From the NCBI GenBank assembly GCA_023261485.1, contig JAHFOY010000011.1:6763-30762 (forward strand): a stretch of 24,000 nucleotides of DNA, read 5' to 3'. Below are positions 6,752 to 24,000 of the stretch, one piece after another. How positions within the stretch are numbered: the first letter of the stretch is position 1; the number at the start of each line of letters is the position of its first letter. A program made the translations under genes and the position numbers. The notes below the pieces were generated by a model that saw nothing but the letters and a program-made list of their open reading frames with translations, did not search any database and was not told the origin of the DNA. This DNA is from Planctomycetota bacterium. GTDB lineage: Bacteria; Planctomycetota; Brocadiia; Brocadiales; Brocadiaceae.

Positions 6752-7417
6752 TTGAACATGCACACCACTGAAATGAACATATACGACGTTACACTTACCA
6801 TCTCGGATAAACTTATCACATGGCCTTCCGACCCCATAGTCTCCATTCGAAAAACACGCTTGATTTCTCAGGGCAATTCCTGTAATGTATCCGAATTAAA
6901 ATTTGGCTCGCATTGCGGAACCCATATTGATGCTCCGTATCACTTTGAAGAAAACGGTATCAGGATTGATCAAATTCCTTTAGATTTCCTTACAGGAAAT
7001 GCAACGGTATTTGACATAAAAAATAAAGAAAAGATTGATTTAGAGGATGTAAAACCATTACAATTAAAAGATAAAAAACGGGTTATTTTTAAGACTGTTA
7101 ACTCTACCTATTGGAAACTTCCGGAATTTAAAAAAGACTTTGTTTATATTACAAAAGAAGCTGCCCGGCATTTGGTAGAGAGTGGTGTAAAGGTTGTAGG
7201 AATAGATTATCTTTCTGTTGAAAAATTTGGAAATAAACCCGCCGACACCCACCACATATTTCTGAGAAATGGCGTTGTCCTTATCGAAGGGCTTGATTTA
7301 AGCAAGGTAAAAGCCGGAGACTACGAGCTAATTGCTTTGCCATTAAAAATAAAGGATTGTGATGGCAGCCCGGCGCGGGTAATTTTGAGGAGTATGCCAG
7401 AACATATCAAGTTGTAA
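6752..7417 (+). CDS. Putative cyclase / kynurenine formamidase-like protein
   Basis: The GSHCGTHIDAPYHF motif (HxGTHxDxPxH) is characteristic of the putative cyclase family. The start is uncertain: TTG at 6752, or ATG at 6758 or 6773. Confidence 0.75.
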   Translation: MNMHTTEMNIYDVTLTISDKLITWPSDPIVSIRKTRLISQGNSCNVSELKFGSHCGTHIDAPYHFEENGIRIDQIPLDFLTGNATVFDIKNKEKIDLEDVKPLQLKDKKRVIFKTVNSTYWKLPEFKKDFVYITKEAARHLVESGVKVVGIDYLSVEKFGNKPADTHHIFLRNGVVLIEGLDLSKVKAGDYELIALPLKIKDCDGSPARVILRSMPEHIKL

Positions 7418-11901: not shown

Positions 11902-13179
11902 GTGCAACAAATCTGTGTATTTGAAGATAGCCAACACTCACAACTCATCCCACTTGTGTATGCAAAGCCGGTGTTTGAACTCCGATGCGGCTTATTTTCC
12001 AATTTGGAAAGAACTGTCAAACACTATCCTGATGCCGCTATTACCCTTTTTTGCAGAAATTACCTATCCGATATATTAAAAGAAAAATACCCTCATCGTG
12101 TTAACACCCTTCATACAACAGACAATGCCTGCCTTTTTTTAAACGGTCGTGCGATTATTTCTCTGCCTGTTCCTTTAGAAGGCCCGGAGGAAATTGGGGT
12201 TCAGGATAATACGCTTGTTTATGCCCGACTCAAAGGAAACAATGTAAAAAAAATATCTCACGAAAAATTTCTTACACCGGACGTCATCGATTTGCTGAAA
12301 GGTACGTTACCGGTGGTTGATACCCATGTACCCATCATCAACTATTTTTGGGATATCATAAAACACAACAAATCTCAAATAGAAAAGGATTTCATGCTAT
12401 TTGTCAAGGAAGGCTCTATTTCCGGAAAATTGTACGAAGGTGTTTATCTTATCAATGAAGACTTGGTATTTATCGGCAAAGGAAGCCGGGTTAAACCGGG
12501 CTGTGTATTTGATGCAGAAAATGGGCCTATTTATATAGGTAATAACGCCTCCATCGCCCCAAATACGACCATTGAAGGACCTGTTTACGTTGGCAACCAT
12601 TCTATAATTCAATCTAATTCGAGAATACGCGGAGGCGCCAACATTGGAGAGGGCTGCAAGGTAGGGGGAGAAATCGTAAATACTATTTTTCACAGTCACA
12701 GCAATAAACAACACGACGGATTCCTCGGTGATTCTTATATCGGCTCATGGATCAATATCGGGGCAGATACCGTAAATAGCAATTTACTTAATACCTATGG
12801 AAATATAAAGGTCGAACTGGGTGGGGATATTATCAATACGAATCACCTGTTCCTTGGTATGGCAATGGGAGACCATACAAAAACAGCCATCAATACAACA
12901 ATTATGACAGGCAGTGTTTTTGGTTTCGCCTGTAATATAATTACACCCGCCTATCCACCAAAATATCTTCCATCTTTTACATGGTATTCAGACAATGGAA
13001 TGAAGGTCTATATATTAGAAAAGGCATTACAGGTAGCAAGGATTGCGATGAAAAGACGGGATAAAGAAATGACCCCAACAGAAGAACAACTCTTTAGAAT
13101 GATATTTCAGCTTACAGAGAAAGAAAGAAATTCCATAAAAATATGGCACAAGCAGGAACTCAAACCTGACAGTTATTAA
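11902..13179 (+). CDS. Sugar nucleotidyltransferase-like protein with a C-terminal left-handed beta-helix (hexapeptide repeats)
   Basis: 425-aa ORF with a GTG start. The C-terminal half carries repeated [LIV]-G-x-x-x-x hexapeptide patterns ([39 protein letters not shown]), as in GlmU/LpxA-type proteins. Confidence 0.7.
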
Positions 13180-13870: not shown

Positions 13871-15013
13871 CTAATCAACATGGGCTGCGCCGTCCAGGTG
13901 ACTCTGAAGAATTTCATACGAGGCATAACATCTTCTTGCAAACCGGACATGCCAGTAAGCACCTTCTTTCTTTTTTGACAATATCTCGAACTTCACTTTA
14001 CACCTGTGCAGGTGATCAATCATCCTTTGAACATTTTTCTCTTCCCGAAATTTTAAGAGAAATCTTTCGTCGATAAGTTCTCCCCGCGCAGTCTTAGTAA
14101 CACTTTCATACACGGGTTGTAATAACACCTCCCCCAACTGAGCAAAAACTTCCGATTTCAATGACTTGACGTTTTCCTGAATAAACATAGCCGCGCGAAT
14201 AATGCGGTGGGTAAAAAACTCAGACATCATCTCAGCCATCAGCGGGGCAGTAACATGGATATCGCGCAAACAGGATCCTAATGTCACGTACTTCAGGATA
14301 TTTTCGTCAGGATGGGTTGGTTTCATTACGATCCCTTCACATCCCGTCTCATCCAATTCTTTAATAACTTTTTTCAGGGCTGGAATGTCGGAGACTGAAA
14401 ACCGCCCAAATCTCCTGACCGTTGGCATACAATATGTATCAAAGAGTTTGTACCTCTCTTCGACCGGAATACTTTGCGGTTTATCCAACATCATTAAATC
14501 AAAGGCAAAAAATCTGATATCCTCCTTTACATACGGTGGATGTTCAATGTTGTAAGGATTATCGGGGCCGGCAAATTCACCACAAACTATTAACTCCGGA
14601 TAATCATCAAATATCTTTTTTACATCCAAAAAATCCACAATCCGGTCGGTTGAGAAGGGACAGACATAGGCGCCGCGCGAAAAGGCCAGCACGCGGCCTT
14701 GAATGCGTGCAACCCGAATGTTGTAACCATCGACCTTTTCTTCTACGTAAAATGGTTGCGCGTAGGCCTTGTGGATGCCGTTTTCCAGATGCATTATCCG
14801 GGCAATACGCGGAAAATCAAAGAGGATGCCTTCCGGGGTAACGATCGCCCCTTTCCCCAACTCGCCAACCTTTTTCGCCACCCGATAAAAGCAGATACCG
14901 TCGAATTCCTCACGGACAACATCATGCCTGCCAACAGATTCGTCCCATGCGGGCCCAGAAATTCCTACCTGCCTGACTATGTCATATATTTCCATATGCA
15001 CAAACTTTCTCAC
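13871..15013 (-). CDS. ATP-dependent RNA ligase, archaeal Pab1020/Rnl3-like family
   Basis: Nucleotidyltransferase motif I, EEKVDGYNIRV (KxDG), is present. Overall length and downstream motifs (CGEFAG, EGIVMK) fit the Rnl3 type. The track start at 15013 is GTG; an ATG at 14995 is an alternative. Confidence 0.75.
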   Translation of the reverse strand: MRKFVHMEIYDIVRQVGISGPAWDESVGRHDVVREEFDGICFYRVAKKVGELGKGAIVTPEGILFDFPRIARIMHLENGIHKAYAQPFYVEEKVDGYNIRVARIQGRVLAFSRGAYVCPFSTDRIVDFLDVKKIFDDYPELIVCGEFAGPDNPYNIEHPPYVKEDIRFFAFDLMMLDKPQSIPVEERYKLFDTYCMPTVRRFGRFSVSDIPALKKVIKELDETGCEGIVMKPTHPDENILKYVTLGSCLRDIHVTAPLMAEMMSEFFTHRIIRAAMFIQENVKSLKSEVFAQLGEVLLQPVYESVTKTARGELIDERFLLKFREEKNVQRMIDHLHRCKVKFEILSKKKEGAYWHVRFARRCYASYEILQSHLDGAAHVD

Positions 15014-15299: not shown

Positions 15300-16769
15300 A
15301 TGTATATAATCCTGGGTTATGATGATATTGGAAATGCATTGGTTCGAAATCTAAGCAAGTCCGGCGAGGAGATATTCGTTATTGACACAGATGAATCTGC
15401 TTTGTTTGGGTTAAAAGAATCCAATCTACATACACATGTAGCGGATATACGTACTTTTGATTTAGGCGCATTACCGGAAAAACACACAATCGCCTTTGTC
15501 CTCTTACAAAAAAACTTTAAAGATAACTTGACATTAGTAAGGCGCATCAAGAAACTATTTCCCGATAAATTCATAGTATCAAGGGCAACCGATGAGAAAG
15601 AGGCTTCTGCATTAATAGAAAATGGCGCGGATCGTGTTGTTCAAACAACCAGAATTATTACAAATACCTTCCTGAGTGAACTGGAGGCAGCAAAAATAAA
15701 AAGGTCTGCTTCTCATTTAGTAAGTGTGATTAAGACAGCAACACGTAAAGGGTTGGCCATTTTTTTACAGGATAACCCGGACCCGGACGCCATCGCTTCC
15801 GGACTTGCATTAAAACGTATTGCTGAAAAATATGATATCCAATCCGGTATTTATTACGGCGGAAACATTGGTTATCGGCAAAATAAAACATTAGTCAATC
15901 TGCTGAAAGCGGACCTCATTCGATTAAAAACAACAGATGAGGCGCAGAAAATAATTAATGCTGCGGATAAGACGGCATTAATAGAAGCGTCTATTCCTTC
16001 AAAAAACAATATATTGCCTGCACATGCAATCCCCAATATTATTATTGATCACCATCAAACTGATTTACACCTTGTAAAGGGGGAATTTATTGAAATAGTG
16101 CCAAAAATTGGAGCCACCTCTACCATTATGACGAGATACATGAGACAACTGGGTATTGTACCTGACTCATCACTTGCCACAGCGCTCCGTTACGGAATCA
16201 GGGTGGATACTGGCGGATTTACGAGAAACACAACTACCGAAGACCTTGAGGCGGCTGCCTATCTCTCGCCGTTAGTGGACGTGGGCCTATTAAAACAAAT
16301 CGAGAACCTTCCTATGAGCGCAGAGACCATTGACATTCTTGGAAAGGCCATTCGAAACCGGGAAGTAAGAGGGCCATATCTGATTTCCTTTGTGGAATAC
16401 ATAACGGATAGGGACGCATTACCACAAGCGGCTGAATTAATGATACAACTGGAGGGTGTCTCTACAGTGCTTGTCTTTGGCATTGACAAAAACAAAGTTC
16501 AACTATCCGCTCGAAGTATAGATTCAAGTGTCAACCTTGCACTATTATTACAAAAGGCGTTTGGATTTATGAATGCCGGAGGTCACGCTAATATGGCAGC
16601 GGGTAGTATAGATTTGGGTACTTTTGGCAATATTAACAATAAGGCATTATCAAGTGTCATTTTTGATACCATACGAAAAAAGTTTTTCACAGCGGCAGGC
16701 GTAGATATCGAAAAGTGGGAAGTTCCAAAGAAACTGGAATTAATGATCAACAACGGTACCAGGAATTAA
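15300..16769 (+). CDS. DHH/DHHA1-family phosphoesterase with an N-terminal Rossmann (TrkA-N-like) domain
   Basis: DHH motif IIIDHHQTD and DHHA1 motif AGGHANMAAG are present. The N-terminus MYIILGYDDIGNAL resembles a GxGxxG-like Rossmann start. Confidence 0.8.
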   Translation: MYIILGYDDIGNALVRNLSKSGEEIFVIDTDESALFGLKESNLHTHVADIRTFDLGALPEKHTIAFVLLQKNFKDNLTLVRRIKKLFPDKFIVSRATDEKEASALIENGADRVVQTTRIITNTFLSELEAAKIKRSASHLVSVIKTATRKGLAIFLQDNPDPDAIASGLALKRIAEKYDIQSGIYYGGNIGYRQNKTLVNLLKADLIRLKTTDEAQKIINAADKTALIEASIPSKNNILPAHAIPNIIIDHHQTDLHLVKGEFIEIVPKIGATSTIMTRYMRQLGIVPDSSLATALRYGIRVDTGGFTRNTTTEDLEAAAYLSPLVDVGLLKQIENLPMSAETIDILGKAIRNREVRGPYLISFVEYITDRDALPQAAELMIQLEGVSTVLVFGIDKNKVQLSARSIDSSVNLALLLQKAFGFMNAGGHANMAAGSIDLGTFGNINNKALSSVIFDTIRKKFFTAAGVDIEKWEVPKKLELMINNGTRN

Positions 16770-17841: not shown

Positions 17842-17876
17842 AAAAAGGCATGCTTGGTACCAAGCATGCCTTTTTT
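17842..17876. terminator. Bidirectional Rho-independent terminator
   Basis: Perfect palindrome aaaaaggcatgcttggtaccaagcatgcctttttt, a 12-bp GC-containing stem flanked by an A-run and a T-run. It lies between the convergent genes 16806..17813 (+) and 18000..19190 (-). Confidence 0.85.
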
Positions 17877-17999: not shown

Positions 18000-19190
18000 C
18001 TAATTTTTGCTAAAAAATCGTAGTATTCTCTGAAATTTCCTCAGTGCAACCCTTAGGCGCAGGGTACTCTGTCTTCCTTGTTCAATCCCTTCCATGCGCG
18101 CTATGACCTCTCTGGCAGGAGCTACGACGCGTAAAATAAATTTTATTCTTTTCTGCCACCCGGAAATGTTAGAAAAGTAAAAAAAATAGCAAAGATTTTC
18201 CTTTCGCTTACCCTGCCTGAGCAATCTGGAGAAAATCCTTTCTCCCAACCCTTTGCGCCGAGGATAGAGGGTTTCCAAGACTTCACGAGGTACACTGGCG
18301 CCAAAATATTCTTTGCTCAACCATAAACTATAAAACAAAGGCCTTCTCAATTGAAACTCCTCTGCCTCATTGCAAAGCTTTTCCCAATCTAATTTTTCTT
18401 TCCAATGGTTTATCACCCGGTGTATATCCCATACGTGGATTAGCAGATTGTAAGAATGCCTCATGGCATGTTCTGAGAGGTGAAGGAGTTGATGATGGAG
18501 GGCGAGGCACAGCGCATCTGCCTGTCGTATCTTTAAGGGAACTGCCTCCTTCCACAGCTTATCCGCATTAATTTTTTCTGCATAAATATAATTAGGAAGC
18601 GCATCATTAACCCAGTGCCAGTGCAGATGCAGGAAAAGCGGAGAACCCCTTTTCCTGTATAACTGACTGTTATAACAGTTAGATACCCGGAAAGAATCCA
18701 ATCGGACAAAAGACCGATACCCTAATTGGGACAGAACTTTATCAAGCTGCGGAACCTCTGCTGGTTTTACAAGGATGTCTACATCGCCCAGTCCGCGAAT
18801 CCCGAAGTCCTCATACACAGAGGAGAGGAGGGATGCCCCTTTCAAGATGATAATAGGATTATCCAGCATCCGGAGTAAAGCAGCCAATTCTTCAAGGATG
18901 CGGACATTTCTCCCCCAATTATTTATGTATTCCTTTTTGAGTTGTGCTCTAATTGGCGGAGGCATGTCAATCCCCCTCTTTATCAGGCCTTTGTAAAGGA
19001 GGAAAGAAAGCCCTTCTTTTTGGGAGACGCTTAACGCCTCTGTCCAGGAAGGCGAAATAGTTACATTATAGGAGGGATTTAATACCTGCGAGATGAATTT
19101 CAGGGCTTCGTTTCGCCCGGTCTCGTTTGAACATAGCGTGGCGCAGGCCGACTGGAACATATTCTCAAATTTACCCTGTGTTTCTAACAT
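18000..19190 (-). CDS. Nucleotidyltransferase-family protein (resembles the uncharacterised NTP_transf_5-type family found in RiPP clusters)
   Basis: 396-aa ORF. LKGASLLSSVYEDFGIRGLGDVDILV carries the G-x-GDxD-type nucleotidyltransferase motif. It lies directly downstream of, and on the same strand as, the rSAM/PqqD cassette. Confidence 0.65.
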   Translation of the reverse strand: MLETQGKFENMFQSACATLCSNETGRNEALKFISQVLNPSYNVTISPSWTEALSVSQKEGLSFLLYKGLIKRGIDMPPPIRAQLKKEYINNWGRNVRILEELAALLRMLDNPIIILKGASLLSSVYEDFGIRGLGDVDILVKPAEVPQLDKVLSQLGYRSFVRLDSFRVSNCYNSQLYRKRGSPLFLHLHWHWVNDALPNYIYAEKINADKLWKEAVPLKIRQADALCLALHHQLLHLSEHAMRHSYNLLIHVWDIHRVINHWKEKLDWEKLCNEAEEFQLRRPLFYSLWLSKEYFGASVPREVLETLYPRRKGLGERIFSRLLRQGKRKENLCYFFYFSNISGWQKRIKFILRVVAPAREVIARMEGIEQGRQSTLRLRVALRKFQRILRFFSKN

Positions 19191-19288
19191 TCGAGGATGT
19201 ATGCACTATATGTGTTTTTCATGTATCAGTAGAATACCCCATAAAATCTTGCTGTGAATAAACCAAAAACAGATTAGGCCTTCGGCAA

Positions 19289-19358
19289 CTTTTCAATGTA
19301 GAGCGAAGAGACCCTTCGCTCTACAAACCGCATAAATAAAATGAATCCTATACAATCA
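19289..19358 (-). repeat. Copy B of the ~70-nt dispersed hairpin element (partner at 2573..2643)
   Basis: The reverse complement reads tgattgtataggattcattttatttatgcggtttgtagagcgaagggtctcttcgctctacattgaaaag, with the hairpin at 19298..19324. The element overlaps the last three codons and the TAG stop of the rSAM gene 19348..20448, and it coincides with the GC-content switch. Confidence 0.85.
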
Positions 19359-20448
19359 GGTTGTCTGCCCGCGCGTGAGCGACCTGGCAGAAGTACGGAG
19401 TGGCGCCATCCAGCTCGCCGGTCTCCAGGTGCGCGTGGGCTGGGCACCACAGGCACAGGTTCACCAGAGGGCAGCTTCGGCAGGAATCAAGATATTCCTT
19501 GCGATGCGACCTCATATCCAGGACGCGGGGGACGAAATTAAACCAGGCATCGGCCAGATTGCCTTTCCGCAGGTCGTAGACCGTATTTGCCTGGCAGAGG
19601 GACGAGCAGAGGCGGAACGTGCCGTCGTAACCGACGTTAAAACTGCCGTTCCCTGCGCCGCAATGGAATAGATGATCGCACCCCTGGTGCGTGAATTCGT
19701 CATTAATGAGCGTGCTGCAGTTCTGCTGCATGGATTTCATCCGCTCCCCGTCCGCCCGTTCCAGGGCCACGACCTCCCGGGGCGTCAACCGTTCTGCATT
19801 TATCTCCCCGTTTCGCATCGGGTCGCCGTCATAACGCAGGTGAAGCTGGGGGTCGAAGCGGGAATAGTCCTTCGTTTTCTCACGGCAGAATGCCGCTATG
19901 GCGCCCTGCTCGGCCAGGTTGGACCGTATCGCAATTGCCTTGAGGCGGACCCGCACGCCGTTATTCATCAGCATATTCAGGCCGTTCATGAACATGCCGA
20001 ATGAGCCTGGTTTCCGGGTTACGCGCTCGTAGGTCTTCCGCGTTACACCGTAGACAGTAACCTCCACGTCTCGTGGCGGGTATTTCCTGAACAGAGCCAC
20101 ATGTCCTTCGTTTATCATCGTGGCGTTGGTGAATACGGAGACCAGCAGCCCCTTGCGCCTGAGCATGAGGTATATCTCCGGGAAATCTGGACGGATCAGC
20201 GGCTCGCCGCCGGTGATCAGGCACCACATGGCGCCGAGCTTGGCCGCCTGTTCCGCAATATCGCCAATTTCTGCGACGGTCAGTTCCCGTTCGCGGGCTG
20301 CCTTGTCGCCTTCGGGCAGGTTAATGTAGCAATGGCGGCAGTCGTTGTCGCACCGCGCCGTCACCTCGATATCAAAAGAGAGCGGTACACGCTTATCCCT
20401 CAATTTGTCCCAGAGAGAAAACTGCTGGATTTCGATGGTGCTGGTCAT
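19348..20448 (-). CDS. Radical SAM/SPASM-domain peptide maturase (PqqE-like), paralogue 1
   Basis: CDNDCRHC (CxxxCxxC) lies near the N-terminus. The C-terminal SPASM region is HCGAGNGSFNVGYDGTFRLC ... CRSCPLVNLCLWCPAHA. AAGGAG sits 6 nt upstream of the ATG at 20448. Confidence 0.9.
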   Translation of the reverse strand: MTSTIEIQQFSLWDKLRDKRVPLSFDIEVTARCDNDCRHCYINLPEGDKAARERELTVAEIGDIAEQAAKLGAMWCLITGGEPLIRPDFPEIYLMLRRKGLLVSVFTNATMINEGHVALFRKYPPRDVEVTVYGVTRKTYERVTRKPGSFGMFMNGLNMLMNNGVRVRLKAIAIRSNLAEQGAIAAFCREKTKDYSRFDPQLHLRYDGDPMRNGEINAERLTPREVVALERADGERMKSMQQNCSTLINDEFTHQGCDHLFHCGAGNGSFNVGYDGTFRLCSSLCQANTVYDLRKGNLADAWFNFVPRVLDMRSHRKEYLDSCRSCPLVNLCLWCPAHAHLETGELDGATPYFCQVAHARADNLIV

Positions 20449-21280
20449 TATAACTCCTTACTATGATCTTTGCCGCCTGTCGCTGAAGGGCATCGTCCAG
20501 TCCCATCCCGCGATAGCGTAAGCGCACGTGCGATTCTTCAATGCCCCATACATCTCCTGCGGCGCGCGCAAACGTTGTCCATGCAGCGGGATCGCGGCCA
20601 TCGTTCATGTGCAGCGCCAACGTCCAACGATCTATGATTCGGCCCTTCCACTCCATACTGGGATCGAAGTCGTCCGGCGCAAATGGACGGTATACCGCAT
20701 CTCCAAGCGTTCTGTTCAGCAGAACTCGGACGGTATATAAAATACGCGGCCTCAGGAGCGAGAAACAACAGCGCGCAATCGTCCCATACGGCGACATGTC
20801 CTGTACGCGTGCTAGTATGCGCACCAGCCACAAACGCAAACGCTGTTTCGTGTCCGTTAAAATCAGGCGCGCTGCGTAATACCGGCGCACTAGCCAGGGA
20901 TACCTTGCCGGCCGCAGCGGCACGGGCTTCCCTCTGCGCTCAATGGCAATGACAATGCCGAGCAGGTCTTCGTTAAAGGTAGGACCGTCGCTCCCTTCAT
21001 TTGCGCGGTCGGGCCTGGTGATGACATAATCTCTTCCATCGCACCTGCCCTTGCCGACGACGCGATGTCCGAACAGAAAACCCTCTCCGCGACATACCGC
21101 GATATCGCCCACCGAAACATCGCCGGCTGCCCGTGACTGAATCTTCACAACATCGCCCTGGCGAACGGTGGGATACATGCACGCCCCCCACACGCGAAAG
21201 GTAATGCCATCGCGGTCAGCCAGCGCCCGTCCGATTCGGAGGGAAGCCAGGATGAGACTATTGTTTTTTTTGACTGGCAA
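20393..21280 (-). CDS. S24/S26-fold (signal-peptidase/SipW-like) peptidase-like protein with an unknown C-terminal domain
   Basis: The N-terminal ~110 aa align by eye to SPase I boxes: WGACMYPTVRQGDVV (versus SGSMEPT...GD), FGHRVVG (versus the HRV of ER/archaeal-type SPases), and ITRPDRANEGSDGP...LLGIV. The ORF overlaps pqqD by 23 nt and rSAM-1 by 56 nt. Confidence 0.6.
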   Translation of the reverse strand: MPVKKNNSLILASLRIGRALADRDGITFRVWGACMYPTVRQGDVVKIQSRAAGDVSVGDIAVCRGEGFLFGHRVVGKGRCDGRDYVITRPDRANEGSDGPTFNEDLLGIVIAIERRGKPVPLRPARYPWLVRRYYAARLILTDTKQRLRLWLVRILARVQDMSPYGTIARCCFSLLRPRILYTVRVLLNRTLGDAVYRPFAPDDFDPSMEWKGRIIDRWTLALHMNDGRDPAAWTTFARAAGDVWGIEESHVRLRYRGMGLDDALQRQAAKIIVRSYNDQHHRNPAVFSLGQIEG

Positions 21281-21572
21281 CGAGGATGCCCCTCCTCACC
21301 ATCTCGCCCGCAAAGCCAAGGGCATCGTTTTCAATCTCATGGAGCGGCGTGTCGAACTCGGCAACCAGCGCTGTTGCCACATCCTTCAGCGTCCGATGCC
21401 CGTCCAGCTTCTGCCAGATGGCCTGGCCTGTATCGTTCAGGGTATAAAGTTCATCATCCGCATCCCCGATCCCGGCGACCAGCGGGACGATTATGATCTC
21501 GCCTTCAATCTCCCGCGCTACCACATCATCGGACGGGAAGCATACTGCATCGAGAGTAATATCCGTTTCCAT
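21258..21572 (-). CDS. PqqD-family protein (RiPP recognition element)
   Basis: 104-aa ORF. VVAREIEGEIIIVPL...LYTLNDTGQAIWQKLDGHRTLKDVATALVAEFDTPLHEIENDALGFAGEMVRRGILV is a textbook PqqD/RRE pattern. GGAGG sits 8 nt upstream of the ATG. Confidence 0.85.
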   Translation of the reverse strand: METDITLDAVCFPSDDVVAREIEGEIIIVPLVAGIGDADDELYTLNDTGQAIWQKLDGHRTLKDVATALVAEFDTPLHEIENDALGFAGEMVRRGILVASQKKQ

Positions 21573-21590
21573 AAAAACAACCTCCGTTCA

Positions 21591-21613
21591 TTTGACGTTC
21601 AGGAATTTCAAAC
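21591..21613 (+). repeat. 23-nt motif, copy 3 (tttgacgttcaggaatttcaaac), inverted relative to copies 1 and 2
   Basis: It matches 20 of 23 positions of the reverse complement of 22082..22104. It ends about 19 nt upstream of the PqqD start codon, in operon direction. Confidence 0.7.
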
Positions 21614-21803
21614 ACCCCCCATCATCCCTTTCTCGCGGATATCTCAGGGTTCGACTTTACTCACCGCAAGCGCGAAAAGGACAACGGATCAAGGGCAGAA
21701 TGCCTAAGCTTGCATACTGTGTCACAATATATTCAACCGGCCATATATAGCATAATCAATTTGCATAATACAATATTTGTATTGAAACCCTGCTGAAAAT
21801 TAA

Positions 21804-21983
21804 TTATGACAGAACCTGTGCGCTGCAGTTATTGGTGCAAGCATTGTTATTCCTACACGCACTATTTTTGTTACTTGGCCCGGTGCCCCCAATACTCGAC
21901 TTACAAGCCACCAAGACATCCTCTTCCGGTTTGTTTCTCACCAGAACAATCAGTTCCGGTTTACGCCATTCTTTTTTTTGCAT
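21804..21983 (-). CDS. Candidate RiPP precursor peptide, 59 aa (not in the supplied ORF track)
   Basis: Manual reverse-complement translation gives MQKKEWRKPELIVLVRNKPEEDVLVACKSSIGGTGPSNKNSACRNNNACTNNCSAQVLS*. AAGGAGG lies 7 nt upstream of the ATG. It shares the strand of the flanking maturase genes, sits between rSAM-2 and PqqD, and has a charged leader followed by a Cys/Asn-rich C-terminus. Confidence 0.7.
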   Translation of the reverse strand: MQKKEWRKPELIVLVRNKPEEDVLVACKSSIGGTGPSNKNSACRNNNACTNNCSAQVLS

Positions 21984-21990
21984 ATAGACA

Positions 21991-21995
21991 CCTCC
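21991..21995 (-). promoter_or_regulatory. Shine-Dalgarno sequence of the candidate precursor gene
   Basis: The minus strand reads aaaaaGGAGGtgtctatATG, a core GGAGG with a 7-nt spacer. Confidence 0.6.
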
Positions 21996-22081
21996 TTTTT
22001 TTAACTTTTTACGCCACTAAGGCAACAAGGCACAAAGAGACACACTCCTAACCCCCTCTTTTTGGAGGGGAATCAAAAAAA

Positions 22082-22104
22082 GTTTGAAATTCCTGTACAT
22101 TAAA
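22082..22104 (+). repeat. 23-nt motif, copy 1 (gtttgaaattcctgtacattaaa)
   Basis: It is similar to copy 2 at 22237..22259 and inverted relative to copy 3 at 21591..21613. A hairpin follows directly. Confidence 0.7.
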
Positions 22105-22108
22105 CTAG

Positions 22109-22144
22109 GTTGGGTTTTAAAAGACAAAACCCAACTACTTTTTT
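22109..22144 (+). terminator. Hairpin plus T-run, a terminator-like element for plus-strand (antisense) transcription
   Basis: gttgggtttt-aaaagac-aaaacccaac is followed by tactttttt. On the minus (operon) strand no U-run follows the same hairpin. Confidence 0.45.
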
Positions 22145-22147
22145 ACC

Positions 22148-22210
22148 CACCCCTAAATCCCCTCCCAAGAGGGGACTTCTTAAATTCCCCTCTTGAGAGG
22201 GGTAGGGGTG
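22148..22210. other. Predicted three-way-junction-like structure: outer stem cacccct/aggggtg enclosing two cccctc-N4-gagggg hairpins
   Basis: Hairpins lie at 22159..22174 (loop ccaa) and 22187..22202 (loop ttga), with outer pairing 22148-54 to 22204-10. A third cccctc/gagggg hairpin lies at 22053..22070. Confidence 0.5.
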
Positions 22211-22236
22211 TGTTTATCCATTACATATTTTAAAAA

Positions 22237-22259
22237 GATTGAAATTCCTATGCATTAAA
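22237..22259 (+). repeat. 23-nt motif, copy 2 (gattgaaattcctatgcattaaa)
   Basis: It is a direct repeat of copy 1 with four mismatches. The hairpin gctgc-cttcg-gcagc (22264..22278) and the string aactatttt follow it. Confidence 0.65.
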
Positions 22260-22330
22260 TTAGGCTGCCTTCGGCAGCAACTATTTTCCTCCCGTCAATC
22301 CCGAAGTGTTTAATCGGGAATCCATAAGGC

Positions 22331-23494
22331 TTATCTGCCTCTCACCCTTTCCCGCCAATCCTTCACCTCCCATCCGTGTTCATTCTCCCCAAGCCATCCC
22401 ATGAACCGCGCCTGGGCATGCGCCACGTCGCACAGGTACTCTACCGGCGTGTCCAGAGTACCGTGCTCTGTCCACGACTTGGCGGGGCACTGCTCGCACA
22501 TGCCTTTCAGGAAACAGCGGGCGCATCGGCAGAGATATTCAGGGTTCGTAGCCCGTATCTCGCGGAGGCGGGAGAAGCCGTCAAGCGCCTTTTGCAGGGG
22601 CGAACGTCCGTTCGCTCCCACCCTTACAACGTCTGACATCAGCTCCGGGGCGCGGACACCCATGCAGGGCTGCGCCCTTCCGTATGCGTCTATGTTCACC
22701 CCATTGCCTGCGCCGCAGGCGAACAGACTGTCTCCTTGTGGCCCCATGAACTTCGATGCGAACCCGGACATGTCCTTTCGGTATCCCGCCTCGTCCCGAG
22801 TCAGCGCCGAAATCCCATCCAGGGGAGATATGCGCAGCGATTTTATCTGTTTGTTCTTCTCCTCATTGTCACGGCTGTTGCGGAGATCGAAGAACATGGA
22901 GTATTGCGGGGGCTTTGTCATCCAGGGGATGGTCATGGCCCATTCTTCAAACTCTTCTATCTCCGCCCTGTTCTGCGGAAGGAGGGCCGACTTGACGACA
23001 AAAGGAATCCCGTGCTCCAGCAGTAGCTGAATGCCCGTCCAGCACTGATCAAAGGAGCCTGGCGAGCGGGTAGCCGCCTCGTAAGACTCCTCATGCATGC
23101 CGTATACGGTGATCTCGATGGCCACTTTTGGAGGGATGCGGGCAAGCAAGCCGGCCAGCCGCTCGTTGATGAGGCGGGCGTTGGTGAAGAGGAGGACCTT
23201 GATCCCCAACCTCCGCGCATAGAGGTACAGATCCTCGAAATCCGGCCTCAAAAGCGGCTCTCCACCGGTGAAGCGGACCTGCATGCACCCCAGATCTGCG
23301 GCCTGCTTCAGGATATCCTTCACCTGCTCCGTGGTCATCTCGCGCCTGCGCGTATTCTGGTCGTCTGAGGGAAGATTGATGCAGCAGTGGACACAGTCGT
23401 TGTTGCACCGCTCCGTCAACTCCATATCCAGGCTCCCCAGCCGCGGGAGGATCGGCTTTGGCTGTTGCTTTACCCGTCTGACAAATTCGCTCAT
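22331..23494 (-). CDS. Radical SAM/SPASM-domain peptide maturase (PqqE-like), paralogue 2
   Basis: CNNDCVHC (CxxxCxxC) is present. The SPASM region is ACGAGNGVNIDAYGRAQPC ... CRCARCFLKGMCEQCPAKSW. Its C-terminal YLCDVAHAQA parallels YFCQVAHARA of paralogue 1. Confidence 0.9.
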   Translation of the reverse strand: MSEFVRRVKQQPKPILPRLGSLDMELTERCNNDCVHCCINLPSDDQNTRRREMTTEQVKDILKQAADLGCMQVRFTGGEPLLRPDFEDLYLYARRLGIKVLLFTNARLINERLAGLLARIPPKVAIEITVYGMHEESYEAATRSPGSFDQCWTGIQLLLEHGIPFVVKSALLPQNRAEIEEFEEWAMTIPWMTKPPQYSMFFDLRNSRDNEEKNKQIKSLRISPLDGISALTRDEAGYRKDMSGFASKFMGPQGDSLFACGAGNGVNIDAYGRAQPCMGVRAPELMSDVVRVGANGRSPLQKALDGFSRLREIRATNPEYLCRCARCFLKGMCEQCPAKSWTEHGTLDTPVEYLCDVAHAQARFMGWLGENEHGWEVKDWRERVRGR

Positions 23495-23533
23495 TACTGA
23501 TCCTTTTTCTATTCTATATCCTTCGCTTTCTTC

Positions 23534-24000
23534 CTATCCTGCCTGTGCGAGCTTTTCCAACTCAGGCACTATTACCCCGCTCCTGTCGAACCGCATGGTA
23601 TAACATGGCGCTTCGTTCACGATCTGCTCCAGCACGTCCATCACCTTCTGCCACCACTCCGCTGTCACCATCGGCTTGATGAGGGTCGCCAGCAAACGCT
23701 TCCAGATATCCTTCCGGTCGGTCAGGGGAAGGATATCGTTCTGCAGGCTCTGCTCCAGAAAGAGGATCGCACGAAGAGGGGCTGAAGCGCCGGAGACGTC
23801 GGACACATCGCCGTGGCTCCATGTGCCGTGGACGCGGAAACCTTCATCCCACCGCCTGACAATGTTGCGGTCATCGCAGAGTATCTCGATTTTTATGGAC
23901 GAATGGCCATTCGCCTCTACGGCGGCGTTTTTCAATAGCGTTACCGTTGTAGACTTCCCTGCCTCGGAATGGCCGACAAAGAGGAGTCCCTGTCCGTTCA
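23534..24000 (-). CDS. HPr-kinase-like P-loop protein, C-terminal part (N-terminus lies beyond the window end)
   Basis: The reading frame stays open upstream of the track's TTG start. My manual translation of 23936-24000 gives ...NGQGLLFVGHSEAGKSTTVTL-LKNAAVEANG..., a GxSxxGKST Walker A as in the HprK/P C-terminal domain and RiPP-associated HprK-like kinases. Confidence 0.7.
   Translation of the reverse strand, partial: NGQGLLFVGHSEAGKSTTVTLLKNAAVEANGHSSIKIEILCDDRNIVRRWDEGFRVHGTWSHGDVSDVSGASAPLRAILFLEQSLQNDILPLTDRKDIWKRLLATLIKPMVTAEWWQKVMDVLEQIVNEAPCYTMRFDRSGVIVPELEKLAQAG

Follow-up and report, generated by a model that had tools for sequence, protein, structure and literature searches.

A probably horizontally acquired radical SAM/SPASM–PqqD cassette with its own cysteine-rich precursor gene in Candidatus Wunengus sp. 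YC60

The stretch of DNA considered here, 24,000 nucleotides of contig JAHFOY010000011.1 from a Brocadiaceae bacterium of the Planctomycetota (referred to as the window), ends in an array of minus-strand genes which probably represents a horizontally acquired cassette for the biosynthesis of a ribosomally synthesised and post-translationally modified peptide (RiPP) from a Cys-rich precursor in Candidatus Wunengus sp. YC60. An earlier note, made from the letters of the window, had read this array as a peptide maturation cassette combining radical S-adenosylmethionine (rSAM)/SPASM enzymes with a PqqD-type RiPP recognition element (RRE) and carrying its own precursor gene. Domain matches, conserved gene order and the existence of a precursor family support this reading. 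All seven minus-strand open reading frames (ORFs) listed in that note are present and contain the motifs quoted from them (Table 1). The cassette is an uncharacterised and widely distributed variation on the rSAM/SPASM-PqqD theme of RiPP biosynthesis and does not constitute a novel type of system.

An exact-match look-up of the first rSAM maturase (rSAM A) led to longer contigs from this organism, L001 (GCA_052360605.1) and L002; the organism of L001 is Candidatus Wunengus sp. YC60 (Brocadiaceae, Planctomycetota). A survey scanning one genome per species returned 33 loci; recurrent gene families were compared over 34 loci. According to tblastn, the order [rSAM-ScmC fusion]-rSAM A-small peptide-PqqD-S26/GNAT-rSAM B is common to about 30 species-level genomes, so that the arrangement is not due to chance. 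The host metagenome-assembled genomes (MAGs) are labelled as Smithella, Syntrophaceae, Desulfobacteraceae and Geobacter (Desulfobacterota), Terriglobia/Acidobacteriota, Anaerolineae (Chloroflexota), Omnitrophota, Actinomycetes/Thermoleophilia (Actinomycetota) and others. Of the 30 core loci (L001, L005-L033), 24 encode an rSAM A orthologue 5' of PqqD and the peptidase; the remaining six are mostly situated on contigs which end before that position. Best conserved between loci is rSAM B (56-73% identity). For the 295-residue S26/GNAT-like protein we obtained 78 relatives at 90% clustering, nearly all of them metagenomic, and its profile collects at least 154 clusters at 50% identity (E ≤ 1e-30). 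Three architectures can be distinguished. Type I, as found in the Brocadiaceae, comprises the fusion protein and two further rSAM enzymes. Type II (L007, L029) possesses a standalone ScmC-like protein together with two rSAM enzymes, PqqD and S26/GNAT, while type III, mostly of the Smithella type, combines two rSAM enzymes with an ABC exporter and is devoid of both the ScmC-like domain and the nucleotidyltransferase of the NTP_transf_5 family. In the Smithella-type loci a bacterial serpin gene is positioned directly 5' of rSAM A (L013, 6800-8008) and a CHAT-TPR protein is encoded further upstream. The cassettes of L032 and L033, both from MAGs of one study series, contain many frameshifts, which may reflect either sequencing errors or decay.

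The ATG of the precursor ORF follows a perfect Shine-Dalgarno sequence, AAGGAGGTG, at a distance of 7 nt. The 59-residue product of this ORF consists of a predicted leader, MQKKEWRKPELIVLVRNKPEEDVLVA, and a predicted core, CKSSIGGTGPSNKNSACRNNNACTNNCSAQVLS. No Pfam or NCBIfam model matches this peptide and its gene is unannotated at NCBI. About 29 related loci, which belong to at least seven phyla, encode homologues; the counter-case named in the earlier note, homologous clusters lacking a conserved small peptide gene, was thus not encountered. In the alignment P9, R16, L24 and C27 are invariant, while W6, C43, C49 and C53 are conserved in at least 90%. The highly conserved leader follows the consensus W-x-K-P-E-L-I-x-L-V-R-x-K-P-E-E-x-V-L-x-x. 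After it comes an invariant Cys, which is usually followed by Lys, and the hypervariable core behind it shows fixed Cys spacing; the four-Cys scaffold can be written as C-K-x(5-9)-G-P-x(6-7)-C-x(4-6)-C-x(2-3)-C-x(4-7). Type III loci contain a five-Cys core, CKxCT(N/D)PP(S/T)SGPS…. The C-terminal residue of intact precursors is Ser in most cases and Thr in two. Hence, a co-encoded precursor composed of a conserved leader and a variable core is found together with an RRE protein: the discrete PqqD-family protein matches PF05402 with 54 bits (cut-off 23.4), is present in 32 of the 34 loci and presumably serves as the leader-binding RRE. One Thermoleophilia locus (L027) encodes three divergent precursor paralogues (7218-7409, 12165-12404 and 12585-12770), two of which are located 3' of rSAM B.

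The same features bear on the question of whether the pathway yields a peptide-derived redox cofactor, similar to PQQ or mycofactocin, rather than a secreted product. Hypervariable cores and divergent precursor copies are typical of bioactive RiPPs, not of cofactors. Between species the core varies strongly apart from its Cys scaffold, and L027 harbours three divergent precursor copies. Clustering of all locus ORFs revealed two recurrent extra families, an ABC exporter (21 of 34 loci) and NTP_transf_5 (15 loci), and no conserved partner oxidoreductase was found among the clustered ORFs of the compared loci. In favour of a cofactor, the combination of PqqD, a PqqE/MftC-like rSAM/SPASM enzyme and a peptidase follows the logic of PQQ and mycofactocin biosynthesis, MftC is among the better NCBIfam matches (97 bits for the fusion protein), the C-terminal residue of the precursor is conserved as in MftA, and no exporter adjoins the Brocadiaceae copy. 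Since the cores are hypervariable and exporters recur, we consider a cofactor pathway very improbable and retain the RiPP cassette as the probable explanation.

The earlier note had counted two rSAM/SPASM maturases and a separate HprK-like P-loop protein, and had taken the pathway to be complete or nearly so. The longer contigs L001 and L002 reveal that the P-loop ORF of the window is truncated and corresponds to the C-terminal 155 residues of a 679-residue protein whose N-terminal part of about 375 residues is a further rSAM/SPASM enzyme outside the window. Accordingly, since the P-loop protein carries this additional domain beyond the window, the cassette possesses three rSAM domains. The Walker A motif GHSEAGKST was correctly recognised, but the P-loop unit is the C-terminal domain of a fusion rather than a protein of its own, and the claim of completeness has to be given up as the fusion gene starts at about window coordinate 25573, i.e. 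the cassette extends some 1.57 kb past position 24000.

With 27-38% pairwise identity the three rSAM domains are paralogous to one another; they score 77-91 bits against the Pfam Radical_SAM model (E 2.6e-21 for rSAM B, 1e-25 for rSAM A). Alignment shows that all three contain the CxxxCxxC motif of the SAM cluster, located at residues 28-40, and seven aligned SPASM cysteines; the Pfam SPASM model itself matches rSAM B only, with 18.6 bits compared to a cut-off of 21.5. Because CxxxCxxC is situated near residue 30, there is no N-terminal RRE in any of these enzymes. Their best NCBIfam matches are AhbD, MftC, NirJ, ScmE/F, StsB and ACGX, with 64-104 bits against cut-offs of 265-650, and none of the three reaches the cut-off of any curated NCBIfam rSAM family. 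As this includes the cofactor and sulfatase-maturase families whose assignment would have argued against peptide maturation, the RiPP reading stands. Annotation by the NCBI Prokaryotic Genome Annotation Pipeline (PGAP) is limited to “radical SAM protein”. The nearest solved structures, BlsE, SkfB, PqqE, MoaA and SuiB, align with the rSAM core only. A close parallel is offered by the sactipeptide and ranthipeptide maturases AlbA, SkfB, StsB, PapB and CteB, which likewise combine an rSAM domain with a seven-Cys SPASM domain, act on Cys-rich cores and are assisted by an RRE; StsB, AlbA and SkfB are among the matches of the cassette enzymes. In contrast to these maturases, the RRE of the present cassette is a separate protein instead of an N-terminal domain, three paralogues occur per cluster and there is no family-level match to a hidden Markov model.

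Regarding the P-loop domain, the motifs G-H-S-x-A-G-K-S-T and I-L-C-D-D-R are invariant among 13 relatives, so that the arrangement of HprK/P-family kinases, Walker A followed by a DD metal-binding pair, is present. Twelve of the 13 match the ScmC profile (best E 1e-10) and twelve that of HprK-related kinase B, HprK_rel_B (best E 1.5e-8); eight match HPr(Ser) kinase TIGR00679 (best E 4.6e-6) and nine the Pfam family Hpr_kinase_C (best E 5.7e-4). The sequences of HprK crystal structures align across the region from Walker A to DD (PDB 1jb1, E 0.016). Taken together, the ScmC-like domain likely belongs to the HprK superfamily, as judged from these profile and motif matches. A P-loop protein beside a PqqD-family “peptide chaperone” is also characteristic of the uncharacterised HPr-rel-A and HprK-related kinase B systems (TIGR04352, TIGR04353, TIGR04355). 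Compared to these, the cassette scores far below the cut-off, and the domain resides in an rSAM cassette where it is fused to an rSAM enzyme.

The presence of an ScmC-like domain leads to the SynChlorMet (Scm) assignment made in the earlier note. A genuine SynChlorMet cassette would contain ScmC, ScmD, ScmE and ScmF, and the 59-residue peptide would then be the missing Scm precursor. All four Scm models do match, as best or near-best models, and ScmC is the sole NCBIfam family which matches the P-loop fragment of the window. The scores, however, lie three- to six-fold under the curated equivalog cut-offs. For ScmC (TIGR04249) we obtained 28.3 bits with the window fragment and 32.8 bits with the full domain (cut-off 125). 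ScmD (TIGR04248) gave 29.3 bits (cut-off 100), less than the PqqD model of PQQ biosynthesis (32 bits). ScmE (TIGR04250) matched rSAM B with 77, rSAM A with 64.5 and the fusion protein with 63.2 bits, and ScmF (TIGR04251) with 68.5, 81.8 and 89.3 bits, respectively, the cut-off being 400 in both cases. Moreover, AhbD, MftC, ACGX and NirJ score equally high or higher, and PGAP does not name the enzymes beyond the generic level mentioned above. As to architecture, the two PqqE-like rSAM/SPASM paralogues, the PqqD homologue and the ScmC-like P-loop protein of SynChlorMet are all present, most faithfully in L007 and L029 with their standalone ScmC-like protein, two rSAM enzymes and PqqD. The Brocadiaceae cassette departs from this plan: its ScmC-like domain forms part of a third rSAM enzyme, an S26/GNAT protein of the Cys type and an NTP_transf_5 gene are additional, and its precursor family is identified. 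SynChlorMet (TIGR04248-TIGR04251) is itself uncharacterised and was curated from genome context. We regard true membership as quite unlikely; judged by the model scores, the cassette is a sister system of SynChlorMet with extra parts, a relative rather than a member.

One of these extra parts is the 295-residue protein, which had been described as an S26-fold peptidase-like protein. It matches the archaeal/ER-type (endoplasmic reticulum) signal peptidase I model TIGR02228 with 36.9 bits (cut-off 51.85, E 3e-9). The AlphaFold (AF2) model (mean predicted local distance difference test, pLDDT, 87) consists of two domains linked by long helices. For the N-terminal domain Foldseek returned LexA, UmuD', human SEC11A/C and SipA as top matches (probability 1.0, E 2e-3 to 2e-2), and model and search agree on the S24/S26 beta-barrel fold. 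The fold was therefore correctly named, but the expected nucleophile is exchanged and a GNAT-like domain is attached. In the loop GACMYP, Cys34 occupies the position where Ser is expected, the family consensus being G-(T/A)-C-M-Y-P compared to G-x-S-M-x-P of S24/S26 enzymes; the Ser nucleophile of S26 peptidases is accordingly absent from the window protein. Cys is found at this position in 165 of 173 relatives and Ser in eight, while His72 and Asp91 are invariant. Ser is retained in shorter relatives from non-rSAM clusters (Cohnella, Bacteroidales, Armatimonadota). On the evidence of the alignment, this is a clade-specific Ser-to-Cys switch in a peptidase of the ER/archaeal Ser/His/Asp type. 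No hydrophobic membrane anchor was seen when the 295-residue sequence was judged by eye, and the residues are compatible with an active cytoplasmic Cys protease. The domain thus resembles the S26B signal peptidases (ER/archaeal/SipW; SEC11/SPC18, TIGR02228) in its fold, its G-x-S-M-x-P-like loop and the His and Asp positions, but differs from them in its Cys nucleophile, the lack of an evident anchor, the fusion to a GNAT-like domain (in some relatives additionally to NTP_transf_5) and its location in a RiPP cluster.

In the C-terminal domain of the protein the sequence RYRGMGL fits the acyl-CoA loop R-x-x-G-x-G of GNAT enzymes, and R-Y-R-G-x-G-L is nearly invariant among relatives. Foldseek yielded weak matches of this domain to GNA1 and streptothricin acetyltransferase (3pp9; probability 0.85-0.96, E 0.05-0.3), and a fused homologue, P0340, matches Pfam Acetyltransf_1 with 25.3 bits (cut-off 20.7). 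We presume the protein to be the leader peptidase; possibly it is an N-acyltransferase as well. The residues before the invariant precursor Cys, (V/I)-L-x-(A/G/S), fit the -3/-1 rule of signal peptidases, which suggests cleavage before this Cys; in the 59-residue peptide the predicted site lies between Ala26 and Cys27. A related cluster in an Omnitrophica MAG (L031, 1501-11428) encodes a standalone Cys-type S26-like protein of 192 residues without GNAT domain. Its rSAM enzymes comprise one of the SPASM type and two that are B12-dependent, and two PqqD proteins, an HprK-related protein, methyltransferases and an ABC exporter are encoded as well; its 46-residue peptide begins with the same W-x-K-P leader motif and ends in SSSS.

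The nucleotidyltransferase gene encodes an unambiguous NTP_transf_5 protein (PF14907, E 2.5e-44, 152.2 bits, well above the Pfam gathering cut-off of 31.2). That such a gene belongs to the cassette had been claimed before; gene and family are as stated, but the gene lies outside the GC island described below and is linked to the pathway by co-occurrence and by domain fusions elsewhere rather than by operon structure at this locus. Of 15 loci with ScmC, 10 have NTP_transf_5 at a distance of up to 10 kb, and the other five are either located on cut contigs or decayed. Where ScmC is missing (nine loci), NTP_transf_5 is never found (Fisher p = 0.002, without correction for phylogeny). NTP_transf_5 and the ScmC-like domain are thus coupled, being either present together or both absent. 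In addition, P0340, P0342 and P0343 (745-750 residues) are natural fusions of S26-like, GNAT and NTP_transf_5 domains. The locus of such a triple fusion, L038 (4370-6607), also encodes what appears by eye to be a GT-C glycosyltransferase-like multi-pass membrane protein, an ABC exporter and a NagA-like deacetylase. L037 (5822-11622), from a Cohnella sp. MAG, contains NTP_transf_5, an ABC exporter, a 39-residue ORF (…YSAPAVLEQL…), an HprK-like protein, PqqD, an S26 peptidase with Ser nucleophile and an acyltransferase_3 protein; no rSAM gene and no lasso cyclase is present in this module. The Cohnella module suggests that these genes may form a portable leader-handling and tailoring kit, and it may itself represent another uncharacterised RiPP type equipped with the same kit.

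A precedent for this coupling is known from lasso peptides. HprK homologues encoded in paeninodin-type clusters phosphorylate the C-terminal Ser side chain of the lasso precursor before folding (PMC6993621; PMC8498205), and the DD pair is essential in PsmK (PMC6993621). In pseudomycoidin biosynthesis PsmN, an uncharacterised nucleotidyltransferase, attaches hexose to the phosphate, and in some cases a nucleotidyltransferase of this kind forms a single protein with the leader protease B2 (PMC6993621; PMC8498205). The S26/GNAT-NTP_transf_5 fusions and the co-occurrence of ScmC-like domain and NTP_transf_5 mirror this lasso PsmK/PsmN pair of kinase and nucleotidyltransferase. What the cassette shares with the PadeK and PsmK/PsmN systems is the HprK-like domain with its DD pair, the precursor ending in Ser, a discrete PqqD (B1) which would read the leader, and a nucleotidyltransferase capable of forming one protein with the leader peptidase. 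The leader motif of lasso precursors is of the aromatic-x-x-P-x-L type, and W-x-K-P-x-L of the cassette precursors conforms to it. In contrast to lasso clusters, neither the Asn-synthetase-like macrolactam synthetase C nor the transglutaminase-like protease B2 is encoded in the window or the 10-kb flanks of L001; instead three rSAM/SPASM enzymes and an S26-fold peptidase are found, and phosphorylation is inferred. The previously noted absence of lasso cyclase, lanthipeptide and YcaO genes from the window likewise holds and extends to these 10-kb flanks.

Several observations weigh against the pathway as proposed. The chemistry of the product is deduced from the enzymes; neither an exporter nor an immunity gene adjoins the Brocadiaceae copy of the cassette. 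The nearest solved or curated rSAM families (BlsE, SkfB, PqqE, MftC, AhbD, NirJ) match the generic core only, all HprK-type profile matches fall below the curated cut-offs, and the window 295-residue protein itself has no Pfam GNAT match. A Foldseek search against the PDB with the model of the 154-residue P-loop fragment (pLDDT 85) returned generic P-loop GTPases only (weak, E > 0.02) and no HprK. No rSAM gene is found near the triple-fusion homologue on the 7.7-kb contig of L038. The NTP_transf_5 gene of the window, which follows rSAM B at a distance of 157 nt, has a host-like GC content (42-46%) and shares 21-33% identity with its counterparts at other loci; the gap contains a promoter-like site, and the gene may have its own promoter. 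Finally, precursors of the nine loci without ScmC-like domain and NTP_transf_5 (type III) retain the C-terminal Ser to the same degree as the others. For this reason the Ser cannot be a kinase target only and, as far as the alignment tells, must have another or an additional role.

Some of these points would be accounted for by a smaller core consisting of rSAM A, precursor, PqqD, S26/GNAT and rSAM B. In that case the nucleotidyltransferase would be an unrelated neighbouring host gene. The ScmC-like domain would not act as a peptide kinase but would assist the third rSAM enzyme, either as a non-catalytic partner or in the manner of an ATP-dependent chaperone. The position of the NTP_transf_5 gene outside the GC island, the gap with its promoter-like site, the low identity to counterparts, the nine loci whose precursors end in Ser without either enzyme and the generic outcome of the fold search all agree with this explanation. 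It is, however, difficult to reconcile with the invariance of Walker A and the DD metal site, with the occurrence of NTP_transf_5 in 10 of 10 complete ScmC-containing loci compared to none of the nine ScmC-lacking ones, with its fusion to the S26/GNAT protein in three representative sequences, and with the recurrence of the HprK-like, PqqD, S26-like and NTP_transf_5 set without rSAM in the Cohnella MAG. We therefore consider the smaller core unlikely and retain kinase-like domain and nucleotidyltransferase as parts of the RiPP cassette.

Evidence for its horizontal origin comes from base composition. In the segment that begins with the fusion gene and ends with rSAM B (L001 7801-14400, about 6.5 kb; from about 19100 to beyond 24000 in the window) the GC content amounts to 52-59%, whereas it is 37-42% on both flanks and 40% in the Brocadiaceae genome. 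The limits of this sharp island are precisely those of the block of genes, which indicates that the Brocadiaceae genome probably acquired the cassette recently by horizontal transfer from a donor of higher GC content. The closest relatives of the cassette (55-74% identity) are found in MAGs of the Desulfobacterota. HD-GYP-like proteins, a PEP-CTERM-type ATPase and an FxLYD protein encoded further upstream were considered as cassette members and rejected since their genes have host-like GC content and are not conserved at other loci.

From these components the following course of maturation can be envisaged. The discrete PqqD would bind the leader motif W-x-K-P-x-L-x-x-L and present the 59-residue precursor to the three RRE-less rSAM/SPASM enzymes, each predicted to contain two auxiliary Fe-S clusters. 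These would introduce radical cross-links into the four-Cys scaffold. Cys-derived thioethers as in sacti- or ranthipeptides are most likely, being the default expectation when SPASM enzymes act on Cys-rich cores. The rSAM-fused HprK-like domain may phosphorylate a hydroxyl group, with the C-terminal Ser as best candidate by comparison with PadeK and PsmK, and the NTP_transf_5 enzyme would then decorate the phosphate in the manner of PsmN. The putative cytoplasmic S26-type domain with its Cys/His/Asp residues would remove the leader, probably between L-x-(A/G/S) and C, and the GNAT-like domain may acylate either the amine released by this cleavage or the conserved Lys. If all of this applied, a new RiPP class would result in which three rSAM/SPASM enzymes act on a four-Cys core, a Cys-type S26-GNAT protein removes the leader and caps the product, and kinase and NTP_transf_5 install a phospho-(glycosyl) ester at the C-terminal Ser. 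We put this forward tentatively, as a possibility which we rate well below the more general assignment as an acquired RiPP cassette.

The coordinates of the array are compiled in Table 1. Overlaps of 23 nt between the PqqD and peptidase-like genes and of 56 nt between the latter and rSAM B suggest that PqqD, S26/GNAT and rSAM B are probably translationally coupled. At the array end the terminator proposed earlier is indeed represented by a terminator-like stem between convergent genes, with an A run on one side and a T run on the other. Within the intergenic region 5' of the precursor gene a 36-nt direct repeat occurs in two copies (22077-22112 and 22232-22267; 86% identical, core AGGAATTTCAA), each adjoining a hairpin, and a third, partial and inverted copy (21592-21611) is located at the ribosome-binding region of the PqqD gene. 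The three matches to this repeat compare with a chance expectation of 0.02. The sequence might serve as an operator or belong to a small mobile repeat; a regulatory role is a guess.

Table 1. Features of the array at the end of the window
Feature	Position	Strand	Basis
Bidirectional intrinsic-terminator-like hairpin closing the array	17842-17875		15-bp stem, 6 GC pairs
NTP_transf_5 nucleotidyltransferase, 396 aa	18000-19190	-	Pfam; G-x-S … DVD motif
rSAM/SPASM maturase B, 366 aa	19348-20448	-	Pfam Radical_SAM; CDNDCRHC; seven SPASM cysteines
S26-fold/GNAT-like two-domain protein, 295 aa	20393-21280	-	NCBIfam, AlphaFold model, Foldseek
Discrete PqqD-family protein, 104 aa	21258-21572	-	Pfam PF05402
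Precursor peptide gene, 59 aa, Cys/Asn-rich	21804-21983	-	Shine-Dalgarno sequence and homologues
347-nt intergenic region, 5' of the precursor gene	21984-22330	-	Lower GC, several hairpins, direct repeats
rSAM/SPASM maturase A, 387 aa	22331-23494	-	Radical_SAM; CNNDCVHC; seven SPASM cysteines
ScmC-like/HprK-like P-loop part of the 679-aa fusion	23534-24000 (window end)	-	Walker A GHSEAGKST, ILCDDR

The remaining genes of the window have housekeeping functions. Between 16806 and 17813 (plus strand) it encodes a 335-residue protein with a lipoprotein-like N-terminus. Tandem repeats rich in Ala, Pro and Glu (87-bp unit, 2.8 copies, 95% matches) precede a second repeat array in this protein, in which the motif C-x2-C-x2-E-V-G-x-G-H-x-C-x-(V/L)-T-x-F recurs about eight times with a 114-bp period and a weak match to the Pfam double zinc ribbon. 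The L002 orthologue comprises 306 residues, so that the repeat number evidently varies. An RNA_ligase/Lig_C protein (13871-15013, minus strand) is encoded beside a TrkA_N-DHH-DHHA1 protein (15300-16769, plus strand), with a PIN_5 protein nearby in L001; this neighbourhood is unrelated to the cassette.

Orphan rSAM RiPP clusters are common. The present one is widespread in anaerobic, mostly uncultured lineages and has neither a curated model nor an annotated precursor; our literature search, which included papers on Bacteroidales RiPP mining and RRE-Finder, found nothing describing such an enzyme architecture. The cassette supplies a concrete set of precursor and enzymes for a three-rSAM pathway and may provide the first handle on the precursor of the orphan SynChlorMet-type cassettes. 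It also furnishes evidence for the pair of HprK-type kinase and nucleotidyltransferase as a portable module beyond lasso peptides. If the tentative assignment to a new class is true, a leader-handling and C-terminal tailoring kit so far known from lasso peptides only would have been recombined with radical chemistry, and the 295-residue protein would be the first example of an S26 signal-peptidase fold, here with a Cys nucleophile, recruited as a RiPP leader peptidase.

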